DNA of 40,000 nt from Virgibacillus siamensis (GCF_900162695.1 NZ_FUIH01000007.1:1-40000), one strand, 5' to 3'; shown: positions 1,845-16,522, numbered from the stretch's first letter. The notes: generated by a model from the letters alone, not told the origin. Program-made: numbers and translations.

Positions 1845-1851
1845 AACACAT

Positions 1852-1933
1852 GCCGGTGTGGCGGAATTGGCAGACGCGCACGACTCAAAATCGTGTTCCT
1901 TCGGGAGTGTCGGTTCGAACCCGACCACCGGTA
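1852..1933 (+). tRNA. tRNA-Leu (CAA); its 3-prime half is the island attachment site
   Basis: 82 nt with a long variable arm. Acceptor gccggtg/caccggt, anticodon loop ctcaaaa, CCA not encoded. Positions 1878-1933 are duplicated at 16465-16520. Confidence 0.93.
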
Positions 1934-1935
1934 TC
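1878..1935 (+). repeat. attL (58-bp direct repeat, 3-prime half of tRNA-Leu)
   Basis: gcacgactcaaaatcgtgttccttcgggagtgtcggttcgaAcccgaccaccggtatc. It is identical to 16465-16522 except 1919 a versus 16506 c. Confidence 0.93.
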
Positions 1936-1959
1936 GATTTTCAAAGTTTAATAATCGGT

Positions 1960-1995
1960 AATTGAACGTGAATATACCGTCAAATCAACGTTTCT
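1960..1995 (+). repeat. sub-terminal island repeat, left copy
   Basis: aattgaacgtgaatataccgtcaaatcaacgtttct resembles aattgacgtttgaatatacggtcaaatcacggtttct at 16399-16435. Same orientation, and both copies lie just inside the att repeats. Confidence 0.6.
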
Positions 1996-2107
1996 CCATT
2001 GTGGGGAAGCGTTTTTTTGTGTTTAAAATACGTTAGTTTTTAGTGTTTTCCTACCGTCTCTAATCGTGTGCGTTAATCGTGCGAATAGTTACGAAGGGGG
2101 GTAAGCT

Positions 2108-3097
2108 ATGGCAAGACGTAAGAACAACTTAAATGACCGTGAATTATCTATCGTCAGAAAAAGTGATAAGTCGTATGCAGAAACGTTTAAAGAAGCGATT
2201 GATTTATTTGTGACTGATTGCGATTTACGTAATTTAAGACCGTTTACTATCCGTTATTATCAAAACGAACTACAAGCGTTTCTAAACCAATTAGAAGAAC
2301 AAGGGATAGATATGAAAGAGTTAAAGCCCTATAACGTTACGGAAGAACATATCCAAGAAAATGTTATCCGTTACATGCGTATTTACAAAGGTACTAAGAT
2401 TGTTTCAATCAATACCCGTTTACGTGGGCTACGTTCGTTCTTTAATTTCCTTCACAAGAAGAAGCACATTCCTAAAAATCCAATGGAGAATATAACGTTA
2501 TTGAAAGATAGAAAACATGTAATTCCTACGTTCTCAAAAGAACAATTAAATATGTTGTTTAATCAACCCGATTTAACGACGTTTACGGGAGTTCGTGACT
2601 ATACAATAATGATGGTTTTCCTTGAAACTGGAATACGTGTGAATGAACTTGTAGGGCTATCACTAGCTGATATTCAATGGGAAGATAGTCTATTGAGGAT
2701 AAGGAACGCTAAGACGTATAGAGAACGTCTAGTACCCATTCAAAGCGAAATGAAGAAGCAATTAAAGAAGTATATCTCCATTAGGGGAGTAGTCGAAAGT
2801 GACGCTTTATTTGTAACCATTGACGGAACACCTTTGTTAAGAAGGTCAGTACAACAACGAATCGACATATACGGGGTGAAAGCCAAAATAAAAGATGTTC
2901 GTTGTAGTCCTCATACATTCCGCCATACGTTCGCAAAACTAAGCGTTCAACAAGGGGCTAATATCTTCGAATTGCAGACCATTCTAGGACATACAAGCAT
3001 GGAAATAGTTAAGACCTATGTAAACCTATTCGGAAATGATGTAAGGGAAAGACATAAGGATTTTTCGCCGTTAAAGGTATTAAAGAAACGGAGGTAA
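2108..3097 (+). CDS. tyrosine recombinase / integrase (int1)
   Basis: 329 aa. N-terminal SAM-like core-binding region. Catalytic-type motifs ETGIRVNEL, SPHTFRHTFA and LGHTSMEIVKTYV (R..HxxR..Y). RBS gaagggggg. Located 170 nt from attL. Confidence 0.9.
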   Translation: MARRKNNLNDRELSIVRKSDKSYAETFKEAIDLFVTDCDLRNLRPFTIRYYQNELQAFLNQLEEQGIDMKELKPYNVTEEHIQENVIRYMRIYKGTKIVSINTRLRGLRSFFNFLHKKKHIPKNPMENITLLKDRKHVIPTFSKEQLNMLFNQPDLTTFTGVRDYTIMMVFLETGIRVNELVGLSLADIQWEDSLLRIRNAKTYRERLVPIQSEMKKQLKKYISIRGVVESDALFVTIDGTPLLRRSVQQRIDIYGVKAKIKDVRCSPHTFRHTFAKLSVQQGANIFELQTILGHTSMEIVKTYVNLFGNDVRERHKDFSPLKVLKKRR

Positions 3098-3102
3098 CGA
3101 AA

Positions 3103-3300
3103 TTGAACAACCTTCCTAATATCGACAATATGACTACCGTAGAGGCTATCCATTGGTACACGGGGGAGGTTGCTAAAGTTACTAGCCGTAAAGCACGTAT
3201 CAATGGAACTTATTCAGAGGAATATTTAAAGGCTTTGAATGAGTGGAAGCTACGCCTTAACAAAAGGTGTAAATTTGACCGTAAGCAAAGAATGTTTTAG
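3103..3300 (+). CDS. small hypothetical protein (65 aa) directly downstream of int1
   Basis: ORF with a TTG start 5 nt after the int1 stop. No recognisable domain. An excisionase or accessory role is only a positional guess. Confidence 0.35.
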   Translation: MNNLPNIDNMTTVEAIHWYTGEVAKVTSRKARINGTYSEEYLKALNEWKLRLNKRCKFDRKQRMF

Positions 3301-3301
3301 T

Positions 3302-3333
3302 AAAAAAGAAAAAGCCACGCGGTGCAACGCGTG
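3302..3333 (-). terminator. GC hairpin with U-run on the minus strand (possibly bidirectional)
   Basis: cacgcg-gtgcaa-cgcgtg (3316-3333), preceded on the plus strand by aaaaaagaaaaag. This gives hairpin + T-run when read on the minus strand. Confidence 0.5.
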
Positions 3334-4009
3334 ACCTCAAATCTTAGCTATAACTAAATACGGAAACCCGACTTAGCTACTTACATATATTAACGAAAAA
3401 AATTAGTATATGCAAGGCTTATTAAGTAATGCTTTTTTAGCAGCTATGCAGGTTTTCCCGTCGTGGAGTGCCGACTAATACGACGATAATATAACCTTGA
3501 AAGGTTCGCCCTGCCGACGCAATAACAAGGGCTAGGACACGCTTTAACGTTCCCTATTGCGTTTTGTGTCCGAAGGGTGAAAAGCTACCCCTAAGTGCTG
3601 AACGAAGGAAGGGTAGACCGTTTACGGACGGTGTAGGACAAGCCACAACTAACATAGAATCCATTTCTAGTCCCACAATAAAAGGGTGTCGAATTAGCTA
3701 ACTGAAAAGCCAAAGCGTAAGGTTAGGGACTATGTGAACCTGCTAGGGCTACTTGTTGCAGTAGGCTTGTTAAGGAGAAATCTTTTCGTTAATAGGGATA
3801 CACTGCGGACACCTCAATAATTCCCGACGGATGTTGTCCAAGTATAACGACTATTCTTATAGCAGATTATTTTTTAAAAATCTCGTTATAAGGTAGTCGT
3901 TACTATGCCTTACGTATTCCTAAACTAGCCCTCAAGATGTTGCCAAAGATAAATACCAAATGCAAGTCTAAGGACGAAAATAATCATTAAAAAAAGGATT
4001 AGATACAAT
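3334..4009. other. ORF-free, comparatively GC-rich, hairpin-dense region (candidate large structured RNA or cis-acting site)
   Basis: No ORF of 60 aa or more on either strand for ~0.7 kb. Many local helices, e.g. cgtcgt/acgacg 3459-3485, gccct/agggc 3508-3531, ggacacgc/gcgt..gtgtcc 3534-3571, accgt/acggt ~3617-3632. There is also a ~58-nt extended hairpin at 3845-3902 (taacgacta/tagtcgtta plus inner pairs). Confidence 0.4.
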
Positions 4010-4168
4010 ATGGATAACCGCCAAGCGTTAGGATATATGTTACTAGCTTGTAAAAACATTCGATTTGATAAAGAAACTTAAAGGGCTATGTATTTCCAAT
4101 TCGATATGAAAACGGAGGAAGAAGCCGAGGAAATAGGACATTATTGGTATAACGAATTACTAAAATAA
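4010..4168 (+). pseudogene. small ORF (~52 codons) interrupted by an in-frame TAA
   Basis: MDNRQALGYMLLACKNIRFDKET-TAA(4079-4081)-RAMYFQFDMKTEEEAEEIGHYWYNELLK. The same frame stays open on both sides of the stop. Confidence 0.4.
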
Positions 4169-4341
4169 TAATAATTTCAGTTCGTAAATACTTCAAGTAA
4201 GACCTAGATAATTGGTTTTTTATGTTAAAATGATAATGAAATATTACAAAGTTTATAAATGGGTGCACCTACACTAAAGTGGCAGGAAAGTGCAACAAGA
4301 ATAGTATAAGATGGTTACATATAGAAACAAAGAAGGGGTGA

Positions 4342-4893
4342 ATGATTATGATGGTCAGTCCAAAAGAGTTTTTTCAAAAAGATTTGAGATATATTATTAG
4401 GTCTGCGGTAGAAGCGGATGGAGAAAATCTATCTGATGTAAGGGTACAAATAGATGGTGAAACAGAAAATATGGATAGAGAAAAAGGTGAAGCGTTTATT
4501 GATGAAGTAAGTTTTAAACAGCTTATCAAAGAAGATGCAGAAAGTCCTCATAATCTTTTTTTGGTTTGTGAAGTGAATGGAAGAATTGTTGGTTTTTCAA
4601 GGTGTGAAGGGAACCATTTGAAAAGGTTGTCGCATAAAGTTGAGTTTGGTGTTTGTGTACTAAAGGATTTCTGGGGATATGGCATTGGAACAAACTTGTT
4701 AAAAGAAACAACTAAATGGGCTGATACAAAAGGAATCAAAAAGATTATATTGAATGTACTTGAAACGAATGGAAATGCAATAAAGCTTTATAAAAAATAT
4801 GGATTTGAAATAGAAGGAATACTAAAGAATGACAAACTATTGTCGGATGGGAACTATTATAACACCGTAGTAATGGGAAGGTTTAACGGATAA
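4342..4893 (+). CDS. GNAT family N-acetyltransferase
   Basis: 183 aa. Acetyl-CoA-binding type motif FWGYGIGTNLL ... NGNAIKLYKKYGFEIEG. RBS gaagggg. The true start may be an ATG 6-9 nt downstream. Confidence 0.85.
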   Translation: MIMMVSPKEFFQKDLRYIIRSAVEADGENLSDVRVQIDGETENMDREKGEAFIDEVSFKQLIKEDAESPHNLFLVCEVNGRIVGFSRCEGNHLKRLSHKVEFGVCVLKDFWGYGIGTNLLKETTKWADTKGIKKIILNVLETNGNAIKLYKKYGFEIEGILKNDKLLSDGNYYNTVVMGRFNG

Positions 4894-5004
4894 ACTCCCT
4901 TATTTAACATAAGGGTGTGAATGCTGAACGAGGTTTTTGACTTTCTTTTTTTGAATTAAAGTAGCAGAATTCTTCAATAAGATTTAATGATAAGGGGTTA
5001 GGTA

Positions 5005-5400
5005 ATGCGAGATAGAGGTTCGGTAGTAATAGTAGATAATAAAAAGGTTGGACTAATTCAAAGAATTAGAGATGGTTATACTTATTATGTTTTTCCTGGT
5101 GGAGGAATAGAGGGTGATGAAACACCAGAAGAAGGTGCAAAAAGAGAAGCCCTTGAAGAATTGGGAGTAGAAGTAAAGGTTAATGAGTGCATAGCAAAAG
5201 TTGAATTTAGTGGAACGCAATATTTTTACTTATCCGAAATTGTAGAAGGAACATTTGGAACTGGGCAAGGCGAAGAGTACACCAACGAAAAGAGAGATAG
5301 AGGAACATATTTGCCAATGTGGATAGATATAGATAAGTTATCGTCTATTGATGTTAAACCGAGAGAAGTCGCTTTAAAAATTCAATCATTATTCAATTAA
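5005..5400 (+). CDS. Nudix hydrolase
   Basis: 131 aa. Nudix box GGGIEGDETPEEGAKREALEELGV fits Gx5Ex7REUxEExGU. RBS aagggg. Confidence 0.88.
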   Translation: MRDRGSVVIVDNKKVGLIQRIRDGYTYYVFPGGGIEGDETPEEGAKREALEELGVEVKVNECIAKVEFSGTQYFYLSEIVEGTFGTGQGEEYTNEKRDRGTYLPMWIDIDKLSSIDVKPREVALKIQSLFN

Positions 5401-5530
5401 GGCAGGACATAGTATTTTTTTGAACACTTTCATGGGGTGTTCTTTTTATTTGCTAAACAAATATCGTAAACTTGGCAAGTTGAATAATACAAATTGAAAT
5501 ATAGTTCCTATCAAGGGAGGATTACATAGT

Positions 5531-6274
5531 ATGAAAGGTGAAGTTTATCGAAGTGGTGAATCTATTTATATAAATAAACCCAAAGCAAACAAACTAGCAT
5601 ACACTGAATACAATGAAGAATTATTCAATATTTTAAAGTCTTATACTTGGACGGTTAAAGGGGAATATCTCTATTCTAACAAGCTAAAGAAATACCTTCA
5701 TAGATATGTGATGGAATTCTATTATGGCAAAGAAGCAATAGACGAAGCAAATAAAAAGAACTTTGTTGTTGACCATATAGACAATAACGGTTTCAATTGT
5801 CGAGTAAGTAATTTATGTTTTATCCCTAACAACTTGAATAAGGCTAAAGGATTAACTTTCGACAAAAGAAGAATCGAAATGAAAGAGGACATGACCTTAA
5901 CTTTCTATAAAGACTTCAGTACGGGACAATTCTAGATAACAATCGCTTTCCATAAAGAGTATTTTTACATTGTTAACGATAAAGCTATTCAAGTTGATAA
6001 AGCTTATTTTGTTTATGAGGATGACTTTGAACTTGTATTAAATGATTCAGGGAAAATTCTACAACAAGTAAATAAAAACGGGGAGTTCGACGAAAATAAG
6101 TTAAGTTGTAAAAAAATGCTATATCACCCCTCAACCTATATTAAGCTAACACCCGAGGAAAAGGGAAGCCCTATAATCGAAAGGGATGGAAAGCAATATA
6201 TAATTCTAAATGAACATACCCGTTTAGGAGAAATCCCACCTGATAAAAATTTATATGATGAGGACAAAATATAA
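5531..6274 (+). pseudogene. HNH-motif protein with in-frame TAG at 5933-5935 (134 + 112 codons)
   Basis: The N-terminal part contains VVDHIDNNGFNCRVSNLCFIPNNLNKAKG (HNH-like). After the TAG the same frame stays open for 112 more codons (ITIAFHKEYFYIVNDKAIQVDK...DEDKI) to TAA at 6272-6274. Confidence 0.6.
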
Positions 6275-6488
6275 AAATGATTGATAATTTTAAGGGGGAC
6301 GTTTTAGAAAAACTGATATGAGATGTTTCTAATGTTATTAGTCACAAATACCACTTGTTTTGAAGAGGTATTTAAAGAAAGGAAGTAATTTCCTACAAGT
6401 GTTATGACCCTTTGTCACAAAGATTTAACAATCGCTATAACCGTTGGCGGACAAGGGGTTCAGCCGTTTTGAAGAAAGTGCATAGAAA

Positions 6489-6540
6489 TTTTTTCAATTC
6501 AGCACTTGTATTTTAGCCCAATACAATGCCTATATAATAG
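6489..6540 (+). promoter_or_regulatory. promoter/operator copy 1 (TTGTAT-N9-ATACAA inverted repeat, TATAAT-like -10)
   Basis: gaaattttttcaattcagCACTTGTATTTTAGCCCaatacaatgccTATAATag. The 17-bp core is identical to 8012-8028. Confidence 0.5.
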
Positions 6541-6771
6541 AAACATACGATAACTTACAAAGTTAAAGTTAATCGTTGTTAAAACAAATCGCGTTAGCGA
6601 TTCGGCGAAGCCGATAAGGGTTTAAGGCGAAGTATATTCTTTTGTAAAGAATCAAAAGAGATTACGCCTTCGGCGTGTTACTCACTTCGTTCGTAACTGA
6701 ATATATACAAAAATAGATATTAAATAATTATTGTTTACAATATAAAAGAATAAGACGGGTTATCCCGTTTT
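6541..6771 (+). ncRNA. candidate ~230-nt non-coding transcript between promoter copy 1 and a hairpin terminator
   Basis: No ORF. Consecutive hairpins atcgc/gcgat, tcggc/gccga and aaggcg...cgcctt with inner attcttt/aaagaat. An alternative acgcc-ttc-ggcgt pairing exists. Ends with agacggg-ttat-cccgttt + T (6753-6771). Confidence 0.35.
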
Positions 6772-6914
6772 ATATAGTCAAGTGTTCAAAGCCTTCGCCA
6801 CAAGCCCCATGCCCCACATGGAAACGGAGGGGGCTAACACTTTTAATTACTTCTTGTTTATGTCTTTATGTGAGTGTTTACATGGTATTATTTCTCCTTT
6901 CAAAGACGAAGAAA

Positions 6915-6950
6915 CCCCCGTTTCCTTAATTGGATTCGGGGGCTTTTTTA
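6915..6950. terminator. bidirectional hairpin terminator at the 3-prime end of int2
   Basis: cccccg (6915-6920) / cggggg (6937-6942). T-run ctttttta on plus and tttcttcgtcttt on minus. Confidence 0.6.
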
Positions 6951-6953
6951 TGT

Positions 6954-7844
6954 CTAATAATCTAGTTTGTTAACGGAATCTAATAGGTTTTCTTGTGATG
7001 ATTTTACATAACGGGCAGTCATTAAAGTATTAGGCGTTCCGTCGTTCCTCATGTGTCCAAGCAGGACGGCGACTTCTTCAATAGAAACCCCTTTATTAAC
7101 TAGCGACTTAGCGAAAGTGTGTCTTAGCATGTGGGCGTGTAGCTTTTCTATTGTAACCTTTCCTTTTGAATCAGATACACTGTTGAACTTTGCTAATAGA
7201 TGATTAACGGCACGGGTTGTCATTTTGTCGCTTCGGTTTGTATCAAATAAATAGCTTCCCTTCGGCGTGTATCCTTCTTTATATGCTTTTAAATCCTTGT
7301 ATAGACTATCGTTAATAGGAACTTCGCGGAATAAACCGTCTTTACCGTTTCGAACTCTTATAAAGCGTTTATTTAAAACAACGTCTTTAGATTCTAGGTT
7401 CGTTAATTCCTCAACACGTAAGCCCGTATAAAGTAGCGTAGTTATTACCGTATATTCTCTTAACTTCGGGCGTTTACGGTCTAAGAACTCTTTATAAGCC
7501 GAACGTAAAAGTAAATCAGTTTGTTCACCAGATAACCACTTCACGGACGTATTAACTTCGCGTTTCATTTTAACTTGCTTCGTAATATCTTCCTTCATGT
7601 GTCCATTAGCTTCTAACCATTTAAAGAACACCTTTAGGCGTTTAACATGCGTGTTAATCGTTCCTACGGTTCTTCCTTCGTCTACTAATTTCTTTTGGTA
7701 CTTTGCAATATCACGAGGGATTAAAGCCTTTATATCGCTTCCTACGGTTTCTAGGAAGTCGTTAATCGTTGCCTTATGTCCTCTAATTGTATTGTGACTT
7801 TTATTTTCCGATTCTAAGTATTTCAGGTATGTATTTACTAGCAT
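6954..7844 (-). CDS. tyrosine recombinase / integrase (int2)
   Basis: 296 aa. TGLRVEEL, HAHMLRHTFAKSL and LLGHMRNDGTPNTLMTARYV motifs (R..HxxR..Y). Confidence 0.88.
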   Translation of the reverse strand: MLVNTYLKYLESENKSHNTIRGHKATINDFLETVGSDIKALIPRDIAKYQKKLVDEGRTVGTINTHVKRLKVFFKWLEANGHMKEDITKQVKMKREVNTSVKWLSGEQTDLLLRSAYKEFLDRKRPKLREYTVITTLLYTGLRVEELTNLESKDVVLNKRFIRVRNGKDGLFREVPINDSLYKDLKAYKEGYTPKGSYLFDTNRSDKMTTRAVNHLLAKFNSVSDSKGKVTIEKLHAHMLRHTFAKSLVNKGVSIEEVAVLLGHMRNDGTPNTLMTARYVKSSQENLLDSVNKLDY

Positions 7845-7997
7845 TAAGACAATTCCTTTCAGTCATTTAATAATTTTATTATATGTGGGAATCAGACGAA
7901 AATCAACTAATAGAATTTTTGTCACAATATCTCTAATAAAACCACAACTATAACTAAGGACGTATAAACGTTCACATTTAAGACAAGTTTTATAAAA

Positions 7998-8046
7998 AAA
8001 TTTTCTCCTCACACTTGTATTTTAGCCCGTTACAAAGCTAATAGAG
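7998..8046 (+). promoter_or_regulatory. promoter/operator copy 2, upstream of the rightward regulatory operon
   Basis: aaaaattttctcctcaCACTTGTATTTTAGCCCgttacaaagcTAATAGag. A direct repeat of 6489-6540. Confidence 0.5.
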
Positions 8047-8259
8047 TGAGGAAAAGAAATCACCTTTTCCTACGGATACTAATTTTTTCTGCGAAGTGTT
8101 TAGACCGATTAACATTGTCATTTTGTGTTTCTTTGGAACGGATATAAAACGGAGGTTGAGAGAGTGGGCGTTTTTAACACCTTCCTTCGTTTTTCGTCCA
8201 TTCTCTTTTTTTACTCTAAGTTGCACAAAGTAACACATTTAATAAACGGGAGGTATTGT

Positions 8260-8541
8260 ATGAAAACAAATCAAGTTGACGGTGCGTTAACTATGGATAG
8301 CAACATGGTTATTCGAGGAAAAACAATTAAGGTTCTAAGAACAATTAAAAACCAAACATTAACGGACATGAGGAAAGCTACGGATTTAAATATCTCAATG
8401 CTTTCAGCTATGGAGAATGAGAAGCGTTCCCTATCAGCTAGAAACCAAATAAAACTATCAAGGTATCTAGTCCGTGATTTACGATACACGGCGGACGAAA
8501 TTATCGTAATTCAAGCATTCATAAACAATAAGGAGGTTTAA
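8260..8541 (+). CDS. XRE-family helix-turn-helix regulator (93 aa)
   Basis: The ATG at 8260 has RBS gggagg. The track ORF from 8125 looks over-extended. HTH-like IKVLRTIKNQTLTDMRKATDLNISMLSAMENEKRSLS. Confidence 0.7.
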   Translation: MKTNQVDGALTMDSNMVIRGKTIKVLRTIKNQTLTDMRKATDLNISMLSAMENEKRSLSARNQIKLSRYLVRDLRYTADEIIVIQAFINNKEV

Positions 8542-8544
8542 AAC

Positions 8545-8958
8545 ATGGCTAAAAATTATCGCGAGTTATCGCCTAAAGACATTGAAGAACTGACCGAGAT
8601 TTACCAACGGAGATTCCAGGGCGAAACAATTGTCTCTATTTGTAAAGAACTAGGCGTTGACCGTCGGACATATTACCGAAAGAAGGAACACCCACAATGG
8701 AAGAAAATCGAAAAGGAACTAACCGACAAGCTAATTGATAACGCCTATGACGAAATCATGCAGACGGTAGTACAAAAGGCGATTGGCGGTTCTCATAACT
8801 TCGCAAAGCTATACATGGACGTTACCGGCAAGATTAAGTTAACCCGTGAAGTTCGCGAGGACTACGAGAATAGACGCAATGCAGGTTCAACGTCGCCTAT
8901 GGACTTAGAACAACTTAGGGCATTAGTTGAACAAGATAAAATTCGTAGAATTAAGTAA
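8545..8958 (+). CDS. HTH protein resembling phage small-terminase / phBC6A51-type HTH proteins
   Basis: 137 aa. N-terminal HTH ETIVSICKELGVDRRTYYRKK followed by a helical region (NFAKLYMDVTGK). The layout is typical of Bacillus-phage TerS-like proteins. Assignment is from memory. Confidence 0.45.
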   Translation: MAKNYRELSPKDIEELTEIYQRRFQGETIVSICKELGVDRRTYYRKKEHPQWKKIEKELTDKLIDNAYDEIMQTVVQKAIGGSHNFAKLYMDVTGKIKLTREVREDYENRRNAGSTSPMDLEQLRALVEQDKIRRIK

Positions 8959-9617: not shown

Positions 9618-9654
9618 TTCACTCACTTAAATTTGTATTAAAAAAGACACTTCA

Positions 9655-9682: not shown

Positions 9683-9805
9683 TAATATTTGAATACTTGA
9701 CTATATAAAATGGGGGCATTTTCAAATGAGTAAGGTAGACATATCGTTATGGGTTCTATTCATTTTCACGGCATTTCAAAACATCATGTAGGGGGCTATT
9801 AAATT

Positions 9806-10138
9806 ATGAGTGTAACAAAAAGGAAGAAAGAAAAAGCATATAACGAAATATCCGAGGAACTACGTTTTGCAATCCTAGTAGACTATGAACAAGGTACTAA
9901 GTGGAGAGACATAGCAGAATTTCACGAAGTAGATTATAGAATCGTCGAATCAGTATGCAGGAAAAGACAATTCGAGGAACGAGAAGCACAAGAACGTAAA
10001 GAAGGCGAACGAGGTACAAAGACTATTCGTTACTTCAAGGGCGAAAGGTTAAGTGATGGGAAGCCGTCACCTATAAAGAAATATAACCTTAAAGACTTGA
10101 CCGAAGCAGAGAAAAAGGAACTAGGATTCTTGAATTAA
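9806..10138 (+). CDS. hypothetical protein with possible HTH
   Basis: 110 aa. KWRDIAEFHEVDYRIVESVCRK resembles a short HTH. RBS aggggg. Confidence 0.55.
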   Translation: MSVTKRKKEKAYNEISEELRFAILVDYEQGTKWRDIAEFHEVDYRIVESVCRKRQFEEREAQERKEGERGTKTIRYFKGERLSDGKPSPIKKYNLKDLTEAEKKELGFLN

Positions 10139-10167
10139 GTTATCAAAAATAGGGGGCAATTTTAATC

Positions 10168-10785
10168 ATGGCACTAATCGTTAAACACAATCAGAAAATA
10201 ATCGCATATTCACACGAAGGAAAGGTACGCGGGAGACTTTGCAACAAATGTTATAGCATGAAAAGAATTGACGCGTTCCACGATAACCCTAGAGGGTTTG
10301 AGGGGAAACATTCTACTTGTAAAACTTGTCAAGGGGTATATTCGAAGGAGAACCAAAAGAAGAACGAATACATTCATTCTAAGCTATATAACTACCGACA
10401 AAAGGCGTTAGAAAATGGACTACCTTCCGTTAACTCTATCGAGATTATGGAGAAGGCAAAGGACGAACAACGCGGAGAATGTGTACTAACTGGAAGTAAA
10501 GACAACCTATCTACCGACCATTTCACACCGTTAAAATGGGGTACGGGAATGGGCGACACTTACGAGAATATTATCTATATGGATAGATGGTTAAACACTT
10601 CTAAGGGCAATAGAAACCCCTTTTCGTGGATTAAGAATCAACCTAAAGAGATTCAAGACCGATTCTATTATATTCTTGTTCCAATGCTTGCAGACCGTAA
10701 CGGAATGACACCGAGAGAGTTTAAAGAGTATGTAAACGAATGTTATGCAGAATACGAAGCTAACAAGGACTATAAGGAGGTTTAA
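10168..10785 (+). CDS. HNH endonuclease with N-terminal Cys-rich (zinc-ribbon-like) region
   Basis: 205 aa. CNKC...CKTC, then CVLTGSKDNLSTDHFTPLKWG...NIIYMDRWLNTSKGNRNP (H-N-N type motif). Confidence 0.85.
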   Translation: MALIVKHNQKIIAYSHEGKVRGRLCNKCYSMKRIDAFHDNPRGFEGKHSTCKTCQGVYSKENQKKNEYIHSKLYNYRQKALENGLPSVNSIEIMEKAKDEQRGECVLTGSKDNLSTDHFTPLKWGTGMGDTYENIIYMDRWLNTSKGNRNPFSWIKNQPKEIQDRFYYILVPMLADRNGMTPREFKEYVNECYAEYEANKDYKEV

Positions 10786-10788
10786 ACC

Positions 10789-10953
10789 GTGGAAGATAAT
10801 AAATTATACGTAGAAGCCTTATTAAAAGGTAAGGAAGTTAGGAACATGAAATCCGAGATTGTAGAAATTTTCAAAAACCATTTAGAAAACGTTAATGATA
10901 TTGAACTATTAAAAGCCGTTAAACAATACATGCTAAAAGGAGAGGTTAAGTAA
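10789..10953 (+). CDS. small ORF (54 aa), below the ORF-track cutoff
   Basis: GTG start 8 nt after RBS aaggagg. Its stop overlaps the next start (TAATG). Sequence VEDNKLYVEALLKGKEVRNMKSEIVEIFKNHLENVNDIELLKAVKQYMLKGEVK. Confidence 0.6.
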   Translation: MEDNKLYVEALLKGKEVRNMKSEIVEIFKNHLENVNDIELLKAVKQYMLKGEVK

Positions 10954-11126
10954 TGGAAAAGGTTACATTTTACGTTCACAAGGATTCTAACAAGATTGTA
11001 TCTAAAGTTTGTGGGGGTTGCGGGGCTATTAAACTAGTAGACGACTTTCCAACGTTTGAAGAAGGTAAAAAGAAAATGAACTTTTCATCTAATTGTATTG
11101 AATGTGAGAAAGGGGAACAAGAATAA
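10953..11126 (+). CDS. small zinc-ribbon-like ORF (57 aa), below the ORF-track cutoff
   Basis: MEKVTFYVHKDSNKIVSKVCGGCG...NCIECEKGEQE (CxxC...CxxC). It is coupled to both neighbours through TAATG overlaps. Confidence 0.6.
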   Translation: MEKVTFYVHKDSNKIVSKVCGGCGAIKLVDDFPTFEEGKKKMNFSSNCIECEKGEQE

Positions 11127-11359
11127 TGACACGTAAACTAACACCTTATGAACTAATGGCTATGGGATACGATAAGACCGAAAAAGAGACATTAGAGGAC
11201 GGCGGACAAGAAGCCGAGGTAATCAAGAAGGATAACAAGGAAGAACGACCGTTATCAGCTATTGAAATGTTAATGGCGGGCTATAATCCCGATTCTACGC
11301 AAAAGGAAAAGGAAGTAACCGTTAATCCTAACGAAATTGAAAAGGAAGGCGATAAGTAG
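11126..11359 (+). CDS. small acidic hypothetical protein (77 aa)
   Basis: ORF coupled to the upstream gene. E/K-rich. Confidence 0.6.
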   Translation: MTRKLTPYELMAMGYDKTEKETLEDGGQEAEVIKKDNKEERPLSAIEMLMAGYNPDSTQKEKEVTVNPNEIEKEGDK

Positions 11360-11527
11360 GGTTAAGGAATTCAAATAGAAGCCCCAGACGGAAAGCAAAC
11401 ACTAACAAGAAGTCTAACGGCTTATAAGCCTTCCACGGCTAAACAAATGGTAGACGCACATAATAAACGAACTAGAGGGACGGCAAAATAAAGCCGTTCT
11501 TCTCTTTTGTCAAAAGGAGGATTAAAA

Positions 11528-11734
11528 ATGCCAAGTAAAGCATATTACGAATTACTACACATGCTAGACCCCGAAGAATTAGCAAAAGGGAATCGACTTC
11601 ATATCGAAATTGCTAAACGAATGGCGGGCGAACTTAAAGGGGAAATATATTGGAAACACCCCGACGAAAAGCCCTTCCGTGAAATGACAAGAGAAGAACA
11701 AATAGAAGCATTAAGAAAAATAGTTCGGGATTAA
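11528..11734 (+). CDS. small hypothetical protein (68 aa)
   Basis: The ATG at 11528 follows RBS aaaggagg. The track start at 11507 is less likely. Confidence 0.6.
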   Translation: MPSKAYYELLHMLDPEELAKGNRLHIEIAKRMAGELKGEIYWKHPDEKPFREMTREEQIEALRKIVRD

Positions 11735-11751
11735 ACTTCCCGTTCTTTTTT
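11726..11751 (+). terminator. rho-independent terminator
   Basis: cggga-ttaaact-tcccg followed by ttctttttt. Confidence 0.65.
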
Positions 11752-11836
11752 ACATACTAGGCTTACGAGTTAGCCGTTACGTTTTTGCGTTATACGGCGA
11801 TAGGGGATATTTAGGGAAATTGATAATATTATTACA

Positions 11837-11873
11837 AGACGGAGGACATTACGTTCCTTCGTCTCTTTTTTTT
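11837..11873 (+). terminator. second rho-independent terminator
   Basis: agacggagga / tccttcgtct 10-bp stem (one G-U pair), then cTTTTTTTT. Confidence 0.75.
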
Positions 11874-12065
11874 ATATACATGTAGCTTATGCTAGTAACA
11901 TGTTTGAGAGAAGCCCTACAACGAAGTGAAACATTCTTTATCGACCAATTACCCATCTAACTTCGTCGGAGAACGCCTTATTTAATTTCCCTTATATTTA
12001 GTCTTTATATACTATGGTTATTTTCGTTTGTGCCGTTCCTTCTCGTTCTTCAGCTTCTTCTAGTT

Positions 12066-12245
12066 CTACATCAAAAGATACCATTGTTCCTTCCATGTAG
12101 CCTTTATAACTTCGTCTACTAAATTTGTATCACATACGATACTTCCACGTTTTGTTAAAATATTGGCGTAGTGTTGGGCTTTTGTTGGTGTGGAATTTGC
12201 AAATTTAAGGACTTCTTCTTCCGTCATATAACGTAACTTTGTCAT
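12066..12245 (-). CDS. small leftward ORF (59 aa), below the ORF-track cutoff
   Basis: RBS ggagggg 7 nt before the ATG. MTKLRYMTEEEVLKFANSTPTKAQHYANILTKRGSIVCDTNLVDEVIKATWKEQWYLLM. An overlapping frame continues MVSFDVELEEAEEREGTAQTKITIVYKD. Confidence 0.5.
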   Translation of the reverse strand: MTKLRYMTEEEVLKFANSTPTKAQHYANILTKRGSIVCDTNLVDEVIKATWKEQWYLLM

Positions 12246-12273
12246 TATTTAACCCCTCCAATTCTTTTATTTT

Positions 12274-12282
12274 ATTATATCA
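12274..12282 (-). promoter_or_regulatory. extended -10 promoter element (TGATATAAT) for the leftward small ORF
   Basis: The minus strand reads ...gaattttTGATATAATaaaataaaag, about 30 nt upstream of the ATG. A TTGATA hexamer lies 22 nt upstream, too far for a canonical -35. Confidence 0.5.
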
Positions 12283-12320
12283 AAAATTCGGCTGGTACGT
12301 TTATCAACCTTTTGTAAAGA

Positions 12321-12357
12321 TAGATACTTTTAGATAAGGGTTAGATAAGGATAGATT
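12321..12357 (+). repeat. iteron-like TAGAT(A/T) repeats at ~10-11 bp spacing
   Basis: aTAGATActttTAGATAAGGgtTAGATAAGGaTAGATTacc. Four copies, two of them 9/9 identical (TAGATAAGG). Confidence 0.6.
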
Positions 12358-12360
12358 ACC

Positions 12361-13060
12361 GTTAATAATGCACCTTGTTAATGCAGGACGGTTGGTTTAG
12401 TAAAGAGTATGACGAATAGTAAAATACAAATAACGTCCCATACGTACACACCCCTAATTATCTTTATTTGTGTCTATACCCCTTTTCCTTCCAGTAACGG
12501 CGGGTGTTTAACGTATATTCCCCGTATGTATTGTATATGGGTAGTGGGACAAATAACGCCCCTCATAGCGTAGCATACACCGTCAATTATTCTACAAGAT
12601 ACTAAGCTAATCCCTTATACGATTTTCGTCTTATTCCGTGGGGAATCGGACGAATATAACGCGTTAGATAATAAGACTAAACGAAAGACCAAGGATTAAA
12701 GACTATTGATTCCCTTTTTCTTTCGTCTGATTCCTCTTAACCCTTCGTACTTCCGTAACGTGATTCCTTATCGTTCACAATCAATGTGGGTTTACGTATA
12801 TATTAACGTTCTAAGCGTTTGATAACGTATAGACCTACACGCCTAACCAATCTTCTAACGGCTTGCTACGTGCTTTCTATGGCTTCTCATAACGTCCTAT
12901 ATAAAGTGTATATGTACGAAAAGAGAAGGGGCGGGGGAACGGGGGACGCACACCCTAGCAATCCCACACCCCGCATGATTTACGTATATATTCTAAAAAC
13001 CCCTTCCCGTGTCCTAATTCGATAAATTACCGATTCTACAAAATATAAATTTTCATAAAA
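12361..13060. other. ORF-free region with inverted and direct repeats (candidate origin, packaging site or ncRNA)
   Basis: Only short, start-poor ORFs. Inverted repeat ttcgtcttattcc-gtgg-ggaatcggacgaa (12625-12653). The motif recurs at 12722-12734 and 7888-7900. 14-bp repeat tttacgtatatatt at ~12791 and ~12979. Stem acgaaaga/tctttcgt 12681-12726. G-run patch ggggcgggggaacggggg at 12927-12944. Confidence 0.4.
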
Positions 13061-13307
13061 AATTAGGGTGTTTTGTGCCTTCGTTAATTCCTTCAATCAT
13101 CATTTACGGTTATTCAAACATGGCTATCCGTTACTTCCGAAAAATATACTTCTCCAAAAAATTAAGGGCTTTTGTGTCACAAGATAGCCCCGACTTTTCC
13201 AAAAAGATATTAGAAACATGTCACAAATTAAGTTCATTTACCACAACTATAAGTAGTCATCTTGTAAAAGTAAATTTAGCAGCTATACATCAAAAGGAGG
13301 AATTACA

Positions 13308-13655
13308 ATGACTAGAATTATCGAACAATATACGGCAAAGGAAATAATGAGTAGTGAGAGGTTGCAACACTTAGCAAAAGAAGAAATGCTTCAAAGGGTT
13401 AAGGTATTGTATAAGGTAAAAGAAATACTAAGTTTTCCGCGTGACGGGTATATCAATATTTCTAATGTTGCCGAATTTTACGAAGTTGAAGAATCGAAGG
13501 TATCCAGCTTGTTAGGGATTGCGGAAGAACTCGAAGGGGAACTTAACTTACTTGTTTCTAAAATGGATATGTTAAATGTAGGGTTCTTGCTAAATGAATC
13601 AGTAGTAGCCCAAGAGTTAAGAAATCAAGTAGTAAACATTCGGGACGCGGTTTAA
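13308..13655 (+). CDS. hypothetical protein (115 aa)
   Basis: Strong RBS aaaggagg. No domain recognised with confidence. Confidence 0.6.
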   Translation: MTRIIEQYTAKEIMSSERLQHLAKEEMLQRVKVLYKVKEILSFPRDGYINISNVAEFYEVEESKVSSLLGIAEELEGELNLLVSKMDMLNVGFLLNESVVAQELRNQVVNIRDAV

Positions 13656-13674
13656 AGCCGTTGTCCCCTTTTTT
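13642..13674 (+). terminator. rho-independent terminator
   Basis: gggac..cgg / ccg..gtccc hairpin followed by cTTTTTT. Confidence 0.6.
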
Positions 13675-13843
13675 ATAACCTATTCCATATTCTTATTGTT
13701 AATAGATGAAGTAATAAACGTATAACACGTATGTTATCCCCGTTTTGTTCTTCGTTTTATATATTCGAGATTATTGCACGGTTTCGCACACATAAATTAA
13801 AAAAATCTAAGAAAATATCATTTATTTGTAGGAGGTTAAAACA

Positions 13844-14500
13844 ATGCAAACAATAACGGAAGTGAATCCCGACCAAGTACATTTAATTGCAAAGAGAGAA
13901 CGTATAGAAAGGGTGTACGGTAGGGGGACGCGGTACTATATCATAGCCTTAGAAGAAGCCTGGGGCGAATACTTAGACCTTTACGAGAAGGAAGGGAAGG
14001 ACGCTTTTCGTATAATGTACGATAATCCTAGTATGTATTATCTTGTAGGGAAGAAGATAGACAAGTTCACTAAGGCGTGGAGAAGGAAGGGTTTAACTCG
14101 TGAGGACTTCTATTCTATCTTTTGGGAAACGGCATGGAAAATAACCGAAGCACATACTTTTAGGGACGATTATTTCCTTTATGAAAAGATTCCCCAAGCA
14201 CTAGATAGTGCGGGAATTGATTTTGTGCGTGCTTGTCTTAATACCGATAAAAGGAAGGCGAACTATGATACGGTTAGTTATAAAGATACTAGTTCGTTCA
14301 GATTCGAAGGAGAAGTAGAAACAATGTTAATGATAGACCAATGTTGTAATGGAATAGAACGTGCGGTATTGACGACTTACTTAGAGTGTCCTAATCTTTC
14401 GTACACCGAAATAGGGCGAATACACGGGATAAATCATCATCAAAAAGTTAAAAGGTTAATTGATAGTGCATTGAACAAAATAAAAAAAAGCCCATTATAA
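13844..14500 (+). CDS. sigma-factor-like regulator (region-4-type HTH at C-terminus)
   Basis: 218 aa. C-terminal ERAVLTTYLECPNLSYTEIGRIHGINHHQKVKRLIDSALNKIKK resembles sigma-70 region 4.2 and phage late-gene activators. RBS aggagg. Confidence 0.5.
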   Translation: MQTITEVNPDQVHLIAKRERIERVYGRGTRYYIIALEEAWGEYLDLYEKEGKDAFRIMYDNPSMYYLVGKKIDKFTKAWRRKGLTREDFYSIFWETAWKITEAHTFRDDYFLYEKIPQALDSAGIDFVRACLNTDKRKANYDTVSYKDTSSFRFEGEVETMLMIDQCCNGIERAVLTTYLECPNLSYTEIGRIHGINHHQKVKRLIDSALNKIKKSPL

Positions 14501-14514
14501 AATGGACTAGTAAG

Positions 14515-15714
14515 CTATTTAGAAGATGTATCAAAAACCCTAACTTCAATTCTATGGTTAGCGAAGCCGTACTTCTCAACGGGTTCTATAAACTTTTGGG
14601 TGTTTTGATTATAGTTCTCCTTCATTTTATTTCTAATGTAATCTTGTGGAATTTCATCTACCGCCTTAATTTCTTCAATTTCGGTAGCTGGTTGTAATTC
14701 TTGTATTGTTTTTTCTATTCTTGCTTCGGCTTCTTCCCGTTCTTGTGCCGAAGTAGTGGATTCCTCTAATAATTGCCGTGAGTTTACGGACACGGATAAT
14801 ATAGTTATTAAAGGTACTACTATTGTTAATCCGATATGGAAAATTGCTTCATAAGGGCTATTATGGGATATACTCTTTAAGTCTAGGAATTTACTAGGGT
14901 CATGTTTAGTCTTGTTAATGAAGCTATCACATAGTATTTGAACCTTTTTGTTTTCGGGTGAATAGATACCGATTATCGGACGCTTTAAGGATTCAAATTT
15001 AGTGAAAAAGTCGTTAAAGTAATCAATTTCTAACTTTTGATACGTGGTATTCTTAAAGTTAGTGAAATCATTTTCTTCAATACTTTCCATTAGAATATCA
15101 AGCGAAGGCTTGTCCTTCTCAAAACTAACAAAAGAAGCAATAGTTTTACTTGTAAGTTCCTTTGTAGCTTTTCTAAAGTTTTCTTTATTTCTTTCATCAA
15201 TTGCCGTTTCCTTTACTATTTCAAAAGCAAGGCTTTCAATATCTTCAATTACTTCATTATATGGAAGCCCATTTTTTACATTAGTGTAGTATTTAATTAG
15301 GTTGTTTTTATCAAGCCTACTAAACTGGTAATGATACAATAATTCGTTAATCCCTCTAAAATAAGCAAACGTTAGCCTTATCTTTGTAATCTCTTCATCG
15401 GGGAACATTGAAATTGGGTCAAGTAAGTGATAGAAGGTCTTTACGTCTGCTGATTTCGTGAGGTCTAAAAGCCCAATGTTTTGATAGGAGTTATTTATTT
15501 CAAATGATTCATTAAATATAATTATGTTCTTTGGTGAAATACCATGTTTTAAAGCAAGGCTTATAGTATTCATTAACTCATTTTTATAGTAATGCTTAGT
15601 TAATTGTGAAATGAAATCGGATATTTGCCATGAAGTTAGTAAGTCATCTTCCGTCCTTTTAAATTTAACTTCTAACTTCTTTGTAGTGTTTTTGTATTCT
15701 TCTTCGTTAAACAA
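14515..15714 (-). CDS. 399-aa protein of unknown function with one predicted TM helix (~aa 290-310) and an acidic coiled-coil tail
   Basis: TTG start after RBS aggaggg. Very AT-rich. Hydrophobic segment AIFHIGLTIVVPLITILSVSV followed by EESTTSAQEREEAEARIEKTIQEL. I recognise no known motif. Confidence 0.65.
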   Translation of the reverse strand: MFNEEEYKNTTKKLEVKFKRTEDDLLTSWQISDFISQLTKHYYKNELMNTISLALKHGISPKNIIIFNESFEINNSYQNIGLLDLTKSADVKTFYHLLDPISMFPDEEITKIRLTFAYFRGINELLYHYQFSRLDKNNLIKYYTNVKNGLPYNEVIEDIESLAFEIVKETAIDERNKENFRKATKELTSKTIASFVSFEKDKPSLDILMESIEENDFTNFKNTTYQKLEIDYFNDFFTKFESLKRPIIGIYSPENKKVQILCDSFINKTKHDPSKFLDLKSISHNSPYEAIFHIGLTIVVPLITILSVSVNSRQLLEESTTSAQEREEAEARIEKTIQELQPATEIEEIKAVDEIPQDYIRNKMKENYNQNTQKFIEPVEKYGFANHRIEVRVFDTSSK

Positions 15715-15733
15715 AAATAACCCTCCTAAGTAA

Positions 15734-16207
15734 TCAATCCTCTTTTTTCTGGAATTTTTTCTTTAGCATTTCATCATACTTATTTAAAGCGTCGGTCACG
15801 GCTTTATTCTTTTCGTTCTCTATCTTAGTCTCGACTTGTTTTTTGTATAAATCACTTACAAATAAAGTGAAGAATGAAAAACCTATACTATATAGAAGAA
15901 ACACGTTAGAATCTATGGAGTTAACTAACCTTTTGAGGAAGGTTATGTTTGTATTAAGCATAGGAGAGAGAACGATTAAAACAATACTAAGAATAAATAA
16001 TACATTCTTTGCTATCTTTCGTAAGATATGTTGTTCACTATCTTTCTTCAAAGGGTTATCTAATAAACTTGAAATACTCATTAACAACGCACCCAATGAA
16101 AAACCGAATATGGAAAAGTCCCCAAGTGTTATGTATCCCAACGAATAAAGAGGTGCACCAAAAATAAATATTATCCCCAATACTAAGATGATTCTTTGTT
16201 CCTTCAA
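15734..16207 (-). CDS. 157-aa integral membrane protein (4 predicted TM helices, charged C-tail)
   Basis: Hydrophobic runs at aa 6-26, 31-49, 69-84 and 102-120, then a K/E-rich tail. It ends 19 nt upstream of the 399-aa gene on the same strand. Confidence 0.6.
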   Translation of the reverse strand: MKEQRIILVLGIIFIFGAPLYSLGYITLGDFSIFGFSLGALLMSISSLLDNPLKKDSEQHILRKIAKNVLFILSIVLIVLSPMLNTNITFLKRLVNSIDSNVFLLYSIGFSFFTLFVSDLYKKQVETKIENEKNKAVTDALNKYDEMLKKKFQKKED

Positions 16208-16398
16208 GTCCTTAACACCTTCTTTCGTACTAAGACATAAAAGAATAATATGCTACAAATTTCACACTTATTTATATATTCAGTTTACATTATTTAGAAG
16301 GAATATTGAACATAAAATTAAGGTTGCAAAACAATTAAAAATCTACTATAATGAAACTTGTTCGTTAATCGTATGAATAGTGACGAAAAGAAAGCCAC

Positions 16399-16435
16399 AA
16401 TTGACGTTTGAATATACGGTCAAATCACGGTTTCT
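16399..16435 (+). repeat. sub-terminal island repeat, right copy
   Basis: Imperfect copy of 1960-1995, sharing the core gaatatacNgtcaaatca. Confidence 0.6.
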
Positions 16436-16464
16436 TAACGATTATTAAATTTATAAAATTGAAA

Positions 16465-16522
16465 GCACGACTCAAAATCGTGTTCCTTCGGGAGTGTCGG
16501 TTCGACCCCGACCACCGGTATC
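16465..16522 (+). repeat. attR (58-bp direct repeat, orphan 3-prime tRNA-Leu fragment)
   Basis: 57/58 identity to 1878-1935. There is no 5-prime tRNA half upstream of it. Confidence 0.93.

Follow-up and report, generated by a model that had tools for sequence, protein, structure and literature searches.

An intact island in tRNA-Leu(CAA) of Virgibacillus siamensis belongs to a conserved family of Bacillaceae elements with satellite-like gene content

We analysed a 40,000-nucleotide (nt) stretch of DNA from Virgibacillus siamensis (the window, to whose full length all coordinates refer unless a relative is named) and found that positions 1936–16464 are a mobile island that is intact, was inserted site-specifically and belongs to a family conserved in Bacillaceae. 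The island sits in the tRNA-Leu(CAA) gene and carries two tyrosine recombinases, an XRE-type regulator, a helix–turn–helix (HTH) protein related to phage small terminases (TerS), an HNH nuclease, translationally coupled mini-ORFs (ORF, open reading frame) and a sigma-factor-like protein (Table 1), the gene content listed by an earlier reading made from the sequence alone. That sequence-only reading had also seen no capsid, portal, tail, lysis, large-terminase (terL) or replicase gene, and this holds: in Pfam, PHROGs and NCBIfam, no island ORF matched capsid, portal, tail, holin/lysin or terL genes, or primase, helicase, Rep or relaxase families. We consider below whether the island is a satellite that depends on a helper phage.

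Integration site and boundaries

The window begins within a 23S rRNA gene, of which it contains the end, followed by a 5S rRNA gene and an array of 14 tRNA genes (predicted with ARAGORN), the last of which is tRNA-Leu(CAA). The 3′ part of this gene recurs as a 58-bp direct repeat at the far end of the island, as the sequence-only reading had noticed; the two copies (1878–1935 and 16465–16522) agree at 57 of 58 positions, with A1919 versus C16506 as the sole mismatch. This is the longest repeat outside the tRNA array in the first 20 kb, and a 57/58 match in 40 kb has a chance expectation of about 1e-25 by our own arithmetic (4^-57 × 40,000^2). The repeats, attL and attR, bracket 14,529 bp, within which we did not find the tRNA-Leu att sequence a third time. 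GC content is about 0.49 in the rRNA/tRNA stretch, 0.30–0.39 inside the island and about 0.42 in the flanking genes. The displaced tRNA-operon terminator, likewise described before, was found beyond attR, where its hairpin and U8 tract fold at −20.7 kcal/mol (z = −3.35). Features that the earlier description lacked are a terminator supplied by the island (the region 1936–2025 folds at −24.5 kcal/mol, z −4.0), a 55-nt terminal inverted repeat, a second HNH gene (HNH_3) and the likely start of the XRE gene at 8261. The left copy of the terminal inverted repeat is a candidate arm-type or core-proximal binding region for the recombinase Int1.

The island has the features of elements that integrate at tRNA genes: a repeat that equals the 3′ part of the tRNA, an intact tRNA at one end, and a recombinase that adjoins the site and, across relatives, tracks it. 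We regard integration as established. Int1 recombined a tRNA-Leu(CAA) 3′-end copy borne by the element with the chromosomal gene, an event that rebuilt the tRNA, brought in a new terminator and pushed the native 3′ end and its terminator out to attR.

The sequence-only reading had called for an empty site in related genomes, and we found one at genus level. Sediminibacillus massiliensis has the same rRNA operon with its 14-tRNA array and the same flanking gene, encoding a homocysteine S-methyltransferase, and no island; a hairpin and U-run follow tRNA-Leu(CAA) directly, and the flanking gene lies 1.2 kb downstream. Its intact tRNA-Leu 3′ part equals attR at 58 of 58 positions. One would expect this were attR the native end, moved aside, and the base at attL a contribution of the element. 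Sediminibacillus is the only genus syntenic at this flank. An exact-protein look-up of the flanking gene's product found no record; its closest relatives are from Virgibacillus (95% to V. siamensis), and proteins of the island match V. siamensis entries at 100% identity. In close Virgibacillus species the flanking gene does not stand beside a tRNA array; at most loci of Virgibacillus and Lentibacillus the nearest 10 kb around it contain no tRNA, and these loci are therefore uninformative on occupancy of the site.

The island family and its backbone

Relatives were recovered with the TerS-like, 115-amino-acid (aa) and sigma-like proteins as queries, and their gene content was taken from precomputed Pfam lists. 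They form a family of islands of about 13–15 kb, in at least six genera, at tRNA-Leu(CAA) or at the 3′ end of groEL. Size and gene order are conserved in at least eight genomes across these two att sites, and structural genes are never present; matches to lysis, terL, primase, helicase and relaxase families were also absent from the Pfam lists of at least eight relatives. The tRNA-Leu(CAA) site is occupied in Bacillus sp. SW14 (L082), Bacillus sp. HMSC76G11 (L084), Rossellomorea sp. (L086), Priestia megaterium (L091) and two metagenome contigs (L088 and L092). The groEL 3′ end is occupied in Metabacillus sp. (L081), and the Rossellomorea aquimaris member (L090) adjoins groEL and has an Int1 of the groEL type; further members are found in Priestia endophytica (L089) and in a third metagenome contig (L093). 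One and the same tRNA-Leu fragment closes L084, L086, L088 and L091; in the first three it follows a right arm, about 120 bp long, that is conserved, and in L092 the order is tRNA-Cys, tRNA-Leu(CAA), Int1 and a noncoding block. In L081 about 150 bp of the groEL 3′ end are duplicated; the two copies, separated by 14.8 kb, bound the element, and inverted repeats lie close within them (1897–1918 and 16444–16465 in L081). Full-text searches of the literature found no description of this family, which is apparently undescribed so far.

The shared backbone consists of Int1, the noncoding block, the XRE gene, the terS homologue, genes for proteins of about 207 and 110 aa, the mini-ORFs and a slot for a second recombinase, together with the 115-aa protein in most members and either the sigma-like protein or an HTH_36 protein. 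We considered whether the HTH_36 proteins that fill this last slot elsewhere are homologues of the sigma-like protein and found them not homologous. The order of modules is permuted relative to the window in L090 (8823–14800), where a recombinase/sigma block precedes a block of XRE, TerS-like and 212-aa genes, all on one strand.

The copy in Bacillus sp. SW14 (L082 3662–10253) is 92–96% identical to window positions 1845–8797, whereas the flanking rRNA and tRNA genes are about 75% identical, which points to recent transfer between genera. Decay followed in SW14: the copy ends inside the terS-like gene, its Int1 is frameshifted and the 65-aa ORF next to Int1 is deleted.

Comparison of the two recombinases separates their roles. 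Int1 is 95% identical to the Int1 beside tRNA-Leu in L092 and 26–28% identical to those of the groEL-site elements L081 and L090, which share 80% identity with each other. Int2 is 27% identical to Int1 and 70% identical to its counterpart in L081 at groEL. Since the type of Int1 switches with the site and that of Int2 does not, we assign Int1 as the att-site integrase. The sequence-only reading had taken Int2 for a second integrase, a view that its conservation across tRNA-Leu and groEL elements contradicts; on these comparisons Int2 is a backbone recombinase and not the integration enzyme for this att site. The 65-aa ORF that adjoins Int1 might be an excision or directionality factor. Across the family the second-recombinase slot holds one of three types: Int2 (296 aa), upstream of the XRE gene, in the window, L081 and L082; a 183-aa tyrosine recombinase reduced to the catalytic domain, in L086, L088, L090 and L091; or a 187-aa serine recombinase, in L084. 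Genes for the two smaller enzymes lie in the gene-poor region that precedes the gene for the 115-aa protein.

A 14-nt motif, GGAATCAGACGAAA, accompanies Int2. It occurs four times in the window and four times in L081 (9439, 13541, 13620 and 13636), once in the truncated L082 and in none of the other members (expected, 0.4). One window copy lies near the Int2 start and three are clustered in the gene-poor region, where two of them form a 32-bp palindrome, TTTCGTCTTATTCC-GTGG-GGAATCGGACGAAT, whose arms are conserved between the window and L081 and whose 4-nt centre differs. The arrangement fits a recombination or binding site for Int2; an operator of the XRE regulator is an alternative candidate. 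Int2 might resolve multimers of the excised circle or act as a DNA switch.

Other repeated sequences were observed. All three TGTCACAAW boxes of the 40-kb window (6413, 7920 and 13219, the last reading TGTCACAAA) are on the plus strand in island intergenic DNA; two are upstream of operons (XRE and 115-aa/sigma), and L084 and L088 have similar boxes at the same places. Their statistics are weak, as 5 of 100 shuffles reach three copies. An inverted-repeat pair flanks the left of Int2 and the right of the 207-aa gene, at 6764–6790 and 9688–9714 in the window and, with a different sequence at equivalent positions, at 8287–8307 and 11158–11178 in L081. In members with a small recombinase, a sequence of about 20 nt (containing TATATCAAGGGTT) forms an inverted pair around the 4.5-kb segment from XRE to the 110-aa ORF (L084 3931, 4002 and 8490; L086 4324 and 8312; L088 4065, 4136 and 8479), and it accompanies serine and tyrosine recombinases alike.

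The 137-aa protein encoded downstream of the XRE gene is of a phage-packaging type. Used as a single sequence, it matched the Pfam family HTH_Tnp_1_2 (4e-10) and, modestly, the PHROG terS families (about 2e-6). A profile of its seven-member family matched Protein Data Bank (PDB) entry 2AO9 at 2.7e-8 over positions 29–130, a match that single-sequence phmmer against the PDB had missed. The 2AO9 structure, a protein of phage phBC6A51, is counted among small terminases in the structural literature (PMC11331095). A distant relative, P0048, aligned to the family with an hhalign probability of 97.5% and is encoded on a phage contig (L098) directly upstream of terL (phrog_38, 4e-79) and a portal gene. 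We conclude from these profile comparisons that the 137-aa protein is a small-terminase homologue, with homology that extends beyond the HTH motif, which upholds the guess of the sequence-only reading. Among 1.84 billion proteins, an exhaustive search for its relatives brought up just 30 representatives.

For the XRE gene, the start at 8261 is the most likely, judged by its ribosome-binding site and by the 93-aa product that it gives, relatives being 86–93 aa long; the gene is divergent from Int2, and its relatives include an HTH_3 protein in L086 and an annotated XRE protein on the Bacillus cereus-group plasmid pBC07-4. The 207-aa coiled-coil protein is conserved in nine elements, that plasmid among them, and beyond coiled-coil noise we found no relative of it in the PDB, PHROGs or phages. 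The AlphaFold2 (AF2) model of the 115-aa protein was too poor for use (pLDDT 59). That of the 218-aa protein (pLDDT 79.7) consists of two helical domains joined by a disordered linker. The best 50 listed Foldseek matches in the PDB were all sigma factors or complexes that contain them, and a search of BFVD with the same model was topped by phage sigma factors. E-values in the PDB were weak (0.02–0.1) and TM-scores low, as fits two domains in free relative orientation; Sigma70_r4 was weak in Pfam, and homologues carry the NCBI name sigma-70 family. We regard this protein as sigma-factor-like, in line with the sigma-region-4 assignment made from the sequence. A match of its N-terminal half on a B. 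mycoides megaplasmid was set aside as uninformative, being a fragment beside insertion sequence (IS) elements.

Beside Int1, within an ORF-free stretch of about 1 kb that separates the 65-aa ORF from the left cargo, lies a conserved block of about 500 nt. It is 81–83% identical at the nucleotide level to its counterparts in L081 and L090, against 27–70% identity for neighbouring proteins and 27% for the adjacent Int1. Copies were found at L081 3326–3870, L082 4895–5430 and L090 5046–5595 and, in metagenomes, at L092 1080–1640 and L093 2892–3460. The block contains no ORF of 50 aa or more and matches no Rfam family (curated covariance models), and it is closed by a minus-strand intrinsic terminator (3311–3338; hairpin and U-run) whose stem has compensatory changes. 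In an alignment of six sequences 95% of cells pair, and double changes occur at 13 of 107 pairs (five of the 13 in the terminator), compared with 3.0 ± 1.5 in shuffled alignments (0 of 500 reach the observed number) and 1–2 in slid controls; as the structure was taken from the alignment on which it was tested, this evidence is suggestive only. Single-sequence folding fails to separate the strands (z −2.7 versus −2.2). We propose the block as a candidate noncoding RNA of about 500 nt on the minus strand, convergent with int1. A guide role resembling that of bridge RNAs was rejected as unlikely, since on inspection of the alignment the variable loops are not sorted by att-site type. Neither the phage collections (megablast and blastn) nor IMG/VR held a copy. 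A separate observation concerns the 15.2-kb Sutcliffiella horikoshii plasmid pBH-BAT-15 (L097), which carries FtsK-domain, replication-relaxation and ArpU genes: positions 5406–5497, upstream of the ArpU-family regulator, are 81% identical to the 5′ part of the block. We rejected pBH-BAT-15 as a relative, as it shares just these 92 nt and is a different element.

Cargo sits in two slots of variable content: the first follows Int1 with its noncoding block, and the second lies ahead of attR. The left slot of the window includes a NUDIX hydrolase that matches the PADLOC candidate PDC-S07 (1.4e-11) and an HNH_3 nuclease gene that an in-frame stop interrupts (5936–5938, after codon 134). Its intact counterpart in L082, a collinear gene of 247 aa, shares 97.6% aa identity with it, and the window gene is probably a recent pseudogene. 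Both proteins of the right slot look membrane-associated on reading their sequences; neither has a Pfam, PHROGs or PADLOC family, nor the 399-aa protein an NCBIfam one, and their position makes them a possible defence pair. In relatives the left slot holds a D12 methyltransferase with a BglII restriction enzyme, Abi_C, or HNH/GIY-YIG nucleases, and the right slot ThsB_TIR, SLFN_AlbA_2, SMODS or FRG proteins. Defence cargo in both slots agrees with the pattern reported for satellites (PMC9122126).

The remainder of the 40-kb window is housekeeping DNA, in which we found no prophage or helper. Two observations concern the right flank. A 93-nt stretch between attR and a SAM riboswitch (16590–16682) matches Lentibacillus jeotgali (L013 4269–4361) at 84% on the opposite strand; the match falls outside the syntenic gene and may be a small repeated or mobile sequence. 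Positions 18146–18179 share the opening sequence of the riboswitch and precede the next Cys/Met pyridoxal-phosphate (PLP)-enzyme genes, and are not called by Rfam at its gathering threshold.

Table 1 Features of the island and its surroundings in the V. siamensis window
Feature	Position	Strand	Remarks
tRNA-Leu(CAA)	1851–1935	+	last of the rRNA-linked 14-tRNA array; ARAGORN
attL	1878–1935	+	3′ 58 nt of tRNA-Leu(CAA); holds the island-derived T-loop base A1919
Left terminal inverted repeat	1934–1988	.	55 nt, imperfect; 73% complementary to 16408–16462
Island-supplied intrinsic terminator	1987–2013	+	12-bp stem and U7; now closes the tRNA operon
Int1	2108–3097	+	329-aa Xer-like tyrosine recombinase; Pfam Phage_integrase 7.5e-33; phrog_1
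65-aa ORF	3103–3300	+	adjoins Int1, conserved; 68% identity in L081; no family match
ORF-free conserved block	3296–3830	−	about 500 nt; candidate noncoding RNA
Left cargo slot	4342–6274	+	GNAT, NUDIX and HNH_3 genes
GNAT acetyltransferase	4342–4893	+	left cargo slot
NUDIX hydrolase	5005–5400	+	left cargo slot
HNH_3 nuclease gene	5531–6274	+	probable pseudogene
Int2	6954–7844	−	296-aa Xer-like tyrosine recombinase; Pfam 4.4e-28
GGAATCAGACGAAA motif	7888–7901	+	14 nt; 44 bp upstream of the Int2 start
XRE-type regulator	8261–8541	+	phrog_8; 8125–8541 in the ORF list
Small-terminase homologue	8545–8958	+	137 aa; phBC6A51-family HTH protein
207-aa coiled-coil core protein	8994–9617	+	always directly 3′ of the terS homologue
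Core/accessory small-gene region	9806–11734	+	110-aa ORF, HNH/EndoVII-like nuclease, mini-ORFs, 75-aa ORF
110-aa ORF	9806–10138	+	core
HNH/EndoVII-like nuclease	10168–10785	+	weak matches only in the phage collections
Translationally coupled mini-ORFs	10789–11359	+	
75-aa ORF	11507–11734	+	
Gene-poor control region	11735–13307	.	about 1.6 kb; slot of the small recombinase gene in other members
59-aa ORF	12066–12245	−	gene-poor control region
32-bp palindrome	12624–12655		gene-poor control region; formed by two GGAATCAGACGAAA copies
Further GGAATCAGACGAAA half-site	12721–12734		gene-poor control region
TGTCACAAA box	13219	+	gene-poor control region
115-aa core protein	13308–13655	+	60–74% identical in six other elements
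Sigma-70-family-like factor	13844–14500	+	218 aa; two helical domains
Right cargo slot	14515–16207	−	399-aa and 157-aa proteins; GC about 30%
Conserved right arm, including the right inverted repeat	16343–16464	.	84–87% identical in L084, L086 and L088, directly 5′ of their tRNA-Leu fragments
Right terminal inverted repeat	16408–16462	.	partner of 1934–1988; just inside attR
attR	16465–16522	+	displaced native 3′ part of tRNA-Leu(CAA)
Original tRNA-operon terminator	16528–16588	+	hairpin and U8; now 14.6 kb from the array
SAM riboswitch	16880–16980		upstream of the homocysteine S-methyltransferase gene
Homocysteine S-methyltransferase gene	17080–18129		flank gene; controlled by the SAM riboswitch

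Modes of spread

The island keeps its own terS homologue, and genes for virion, lysis and terL, as well as recognisable replication genes, are absent from it; this suggests a satellite-like element that depends on a helper, an account to which we give an even chance. Excision, induction and packaging by the helper are predicted steps. Expression would be timed by a signal that passes through the XRE switch and the sigma-like factor; Int1, perhaps with the 65-aa ORF, would excise the island; and the TerS homologue would mark its DNA for the helper's large terminase and capsids. Int2, with its candidate sites in the control region, could resolve, rearrange or process the excised circular or concatemeric form, the conserved RNA-like block beside Int1 would belong to the same satellite makeup, and the cargo, often anti-phage genes, would protect the host and so pay for its tolerance of the island.

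Several results weigh against a helper-dependent satellite. We found no helper phage in the window, INPHARED or IMG/VR, and the TerS-like, 207-aa and sigma-like proteins had no tblastn match in 50,697 phage records. Evidence of a pac or cos site and a recognisable interference gene of the Ppi or Cpm type are both missing. Backbone modules also occur, at 25–40% identity, on circular B. cereus-group plasmids of 7.5–8.5 kb that have no integrase, and the backbone may accordingly be plasmid-like, with the 'TerS' a DNA-binding or partition-type protein. In addition, neither the island nor the backbone matched the same phage records in megablast or blastn searches, and IMG/VR held no relatives of Int2.

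These plasmids frame the main alternative, a possible but doubtful one in our judgement, in which the island is a plasmid-like element able to integrate, a 'hitcher' whose transfer route is other than phage. A small replicon would integrate through Int1, and Int2 or the small recombinases would resolve multimers. DNA binding, partition or regulation, and not packaging, would be the task of the TerS-like HTH protein and the coiled-coil protein that accompanies it, and the element would spread through mobilisation, transformation or generalised transduction. The circular, 8,455-bp pBC07-4 (L094, NZ_CP072773) carries the triad of XRE, phBC6A51-type HTH and 202-aa genes, and a 7,558-bp B. toyonensis plasmid (L095, NZ_CP126527) combines a sigma-like protein with a serine recombinase that is 30% identical to the L084 resolvase. 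Serine and tyrosine recombinases are interchangeable in one slot of the family, as is typical of resolution systems, the clustered palindrome and half-sites resemble a res- or dif-type site, and tblastn and blastn searches of the phage collections yielded no homologues. Yet searches of Pfam, PHROGs and NCBIfam gave no sign of a Rep, a relaxase, a coupling protein or an oriT-type feature, both plasmids are typed as non-mobilizable by PLSDB and lack the conserved noncoding block, and the homology of the HTH family to the nonameric small terminase 2AO9 and to a gene in terS position extends past the motif itself. Separately, about 4 kb of pBC07-4 is almost free of ORFs.

Two further accounts fare less well. 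The segment could be a composite of two side-by-side elements, an Int1 part with cargo (1936 to about 6500) and an Int2 part with the regulator, TerS-like and sigma genes (about 6500 to 16464). The low identity between the recombinases and the absence of Int2 from some members speak for this, as does a 32-nt direct repeat (84%; 6503–6534 and 8012–8043) that brackets Int2 and is present in L082 and L083 and absent from L081 and other members. We consider it improbable: a third tRNA-Leu att copy is missing inside the island, the layout from Int1 to Int2 recurs in Metabacillus at groEL with att repeats at the outer ends only, members that have no Int2 keep Int1, the same right arm and attR, and the motif associated with Int2 reappears 4.7 kb away in the right-hand module. 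A decayed prophage, fixed and no longer mobile, would account for terS-like, HNH, sigma and XRE genes without structural genes, for the HNH_3 pseudogene and for the incomplete SW14 copy with its frameshifted Int1. It would not account for a size and order kept in at least eight genomes of at least six genera, at two att sites and never with structural genes, for att repeats that match at 57 of 58 positions, for core ORFs that are all intact, or for 92–96% identity across genera between flanks at about 75%. The sequence-only reading had named a decayed prophage as the outcome that would overturn it; the same gene-poor layout in so many genomes makes this very improbable.

More tentatively, the family as a whole may be one of Bacillaceae phage satellites not described before, with its own terS, a sigma factor, a large conserved noncoding RNA, an interchangeable recombinase of resolvase/invertase type, no replicase, integrase exchange between tRNA-Leu and groEL sites, two hotspots in which anti-phage systems are shuttled and plasmid relatives that have no integrase. 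If the satellite account is right, the Bacillaceae have a satellite family of their own, with a core set unlike those of PICI, cfPICI, P4, PLE and PICMI (compared below), and detectors that require a primase would miss it. The family is a vehicle that moves defence systems between genera, including restriction–modification, Abi, Thoeris-like TIR, CBASS-like SMODS and Schlafen-like systems. It raises three questions: by what means a satellite that has no replicase would be amplified and packaged, what the RNA-like element of about 500 nt does, and why members retain a second recombinase, in one of three alternative types. Should the plasmid-like account hold, the family links small cryptic Bacillus plasmids to integrative defence islands, a less surprising outcome.

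Comparison with known systems

Several classes of element can be set apart by what the island does not carry. It has no capsid, portal, head–tail adaptor/connector or terL gene of its own, as in the phage-inducible chromosomal islands that form capsids (cfPICI); no PHROG or Pfam match to psu-delta-sid, alpA, epsilon or an alpha primase, as in P4-like satellites; and no structural, lysis or replication module, as in temperate prophages. Genes for a coupling protein, an FtsK-type translocase or a type IV secretion system, by which integrative conjugative or mobilizable elements are recognised, had no match in Pfam, PHROGs or NCBIfam. Islands at tRNA 3′ ends share its repeat of the tRNA 3′ part, the intact tRNA next to the integrase and the fragment at the far end, a likeness that covers the mode of integration and says nothing on transfer. 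The small B. cereus-group plasmids (pBC07-4 and NZ_CP126527) share the triad or the pair of sigma-like protein and recombinase at 25–40% identity, but they have no integrase, att repeats or noncoding block and are half the size of the island.

PBSX-type Bacillus phages have an xre repressor, the sigma-like factor Xpf and the small terminase XtmA, and besides terL they carry complete sets of structural and lysis genes. The island likewise unites a regulator of XRE type with a sigma-like factor of phage type and a small terminase; it differs in having no terL, structural or lysis genes, and no sequence similarity to phage records was detected. The PICMI (phage-inducible chromosomal minimalist islands) of Vibrionaceae are satellites of reduced gene number without capsid-remodelling genes (bioRxiv 10.1101/2023.07.18.549517), and they set a precedent for a satellite as sparse as this. 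Few genes, no capsid remodelling, integration at the 3′ end of a conserved gene and defence cargo are common to PICMI and the island, whereas PICMI use a fis site, AlpA and three core proteins for excision and replication, none of which is detectable in the island, and the island has many more core genes.

The sequence-only reading had called the island a satellite like the phage-inducible chromosomal islands (PICI). The tRNA-Leu island itself and its packaging-accessory genes without structural genes stand; membership among PICI does not, as at most three of the five PICI core components of SatelliteFinder are present. An integrase and a small-terminase homologue were found, and tail, holin, portal and connector genes are absent, as in PICI; the primase-replicase (pri-rep) component had no primase, helicase or Rep match in the island or its relatives. 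A candidate regulator is the XRE gene divergent from Int2, but Pfam, PHROGs and NCBIfam gave no homologue of AlpA or Stl, and no homologue of a capsid-morphogenesis or interference gene was found, although the 207-aa, 110-aa and 115-aa proteins could be analogues. Compared with PICI and the Staphylococcus aureus pathogenicity islands (SaPI), the island has no primase-replicase or recognisable origin, and no detectable Stl/AlpA-type module or Ppi, Cpm or Pti homologue, and it adds a sigma-like gene, a second recombinase and the noncoding block of about 500 nt. What it shares with them is a size of about 15 kb, a terminal tyrosine integrase, a specific att site, a candidate regulator module, its own terS, cargo slots and the absence of capsid, tail and lysis genes. 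We conclude that, although the absence of a replication module means that it is not a PICI member, the island is in its working most like the PICI and SaPI.

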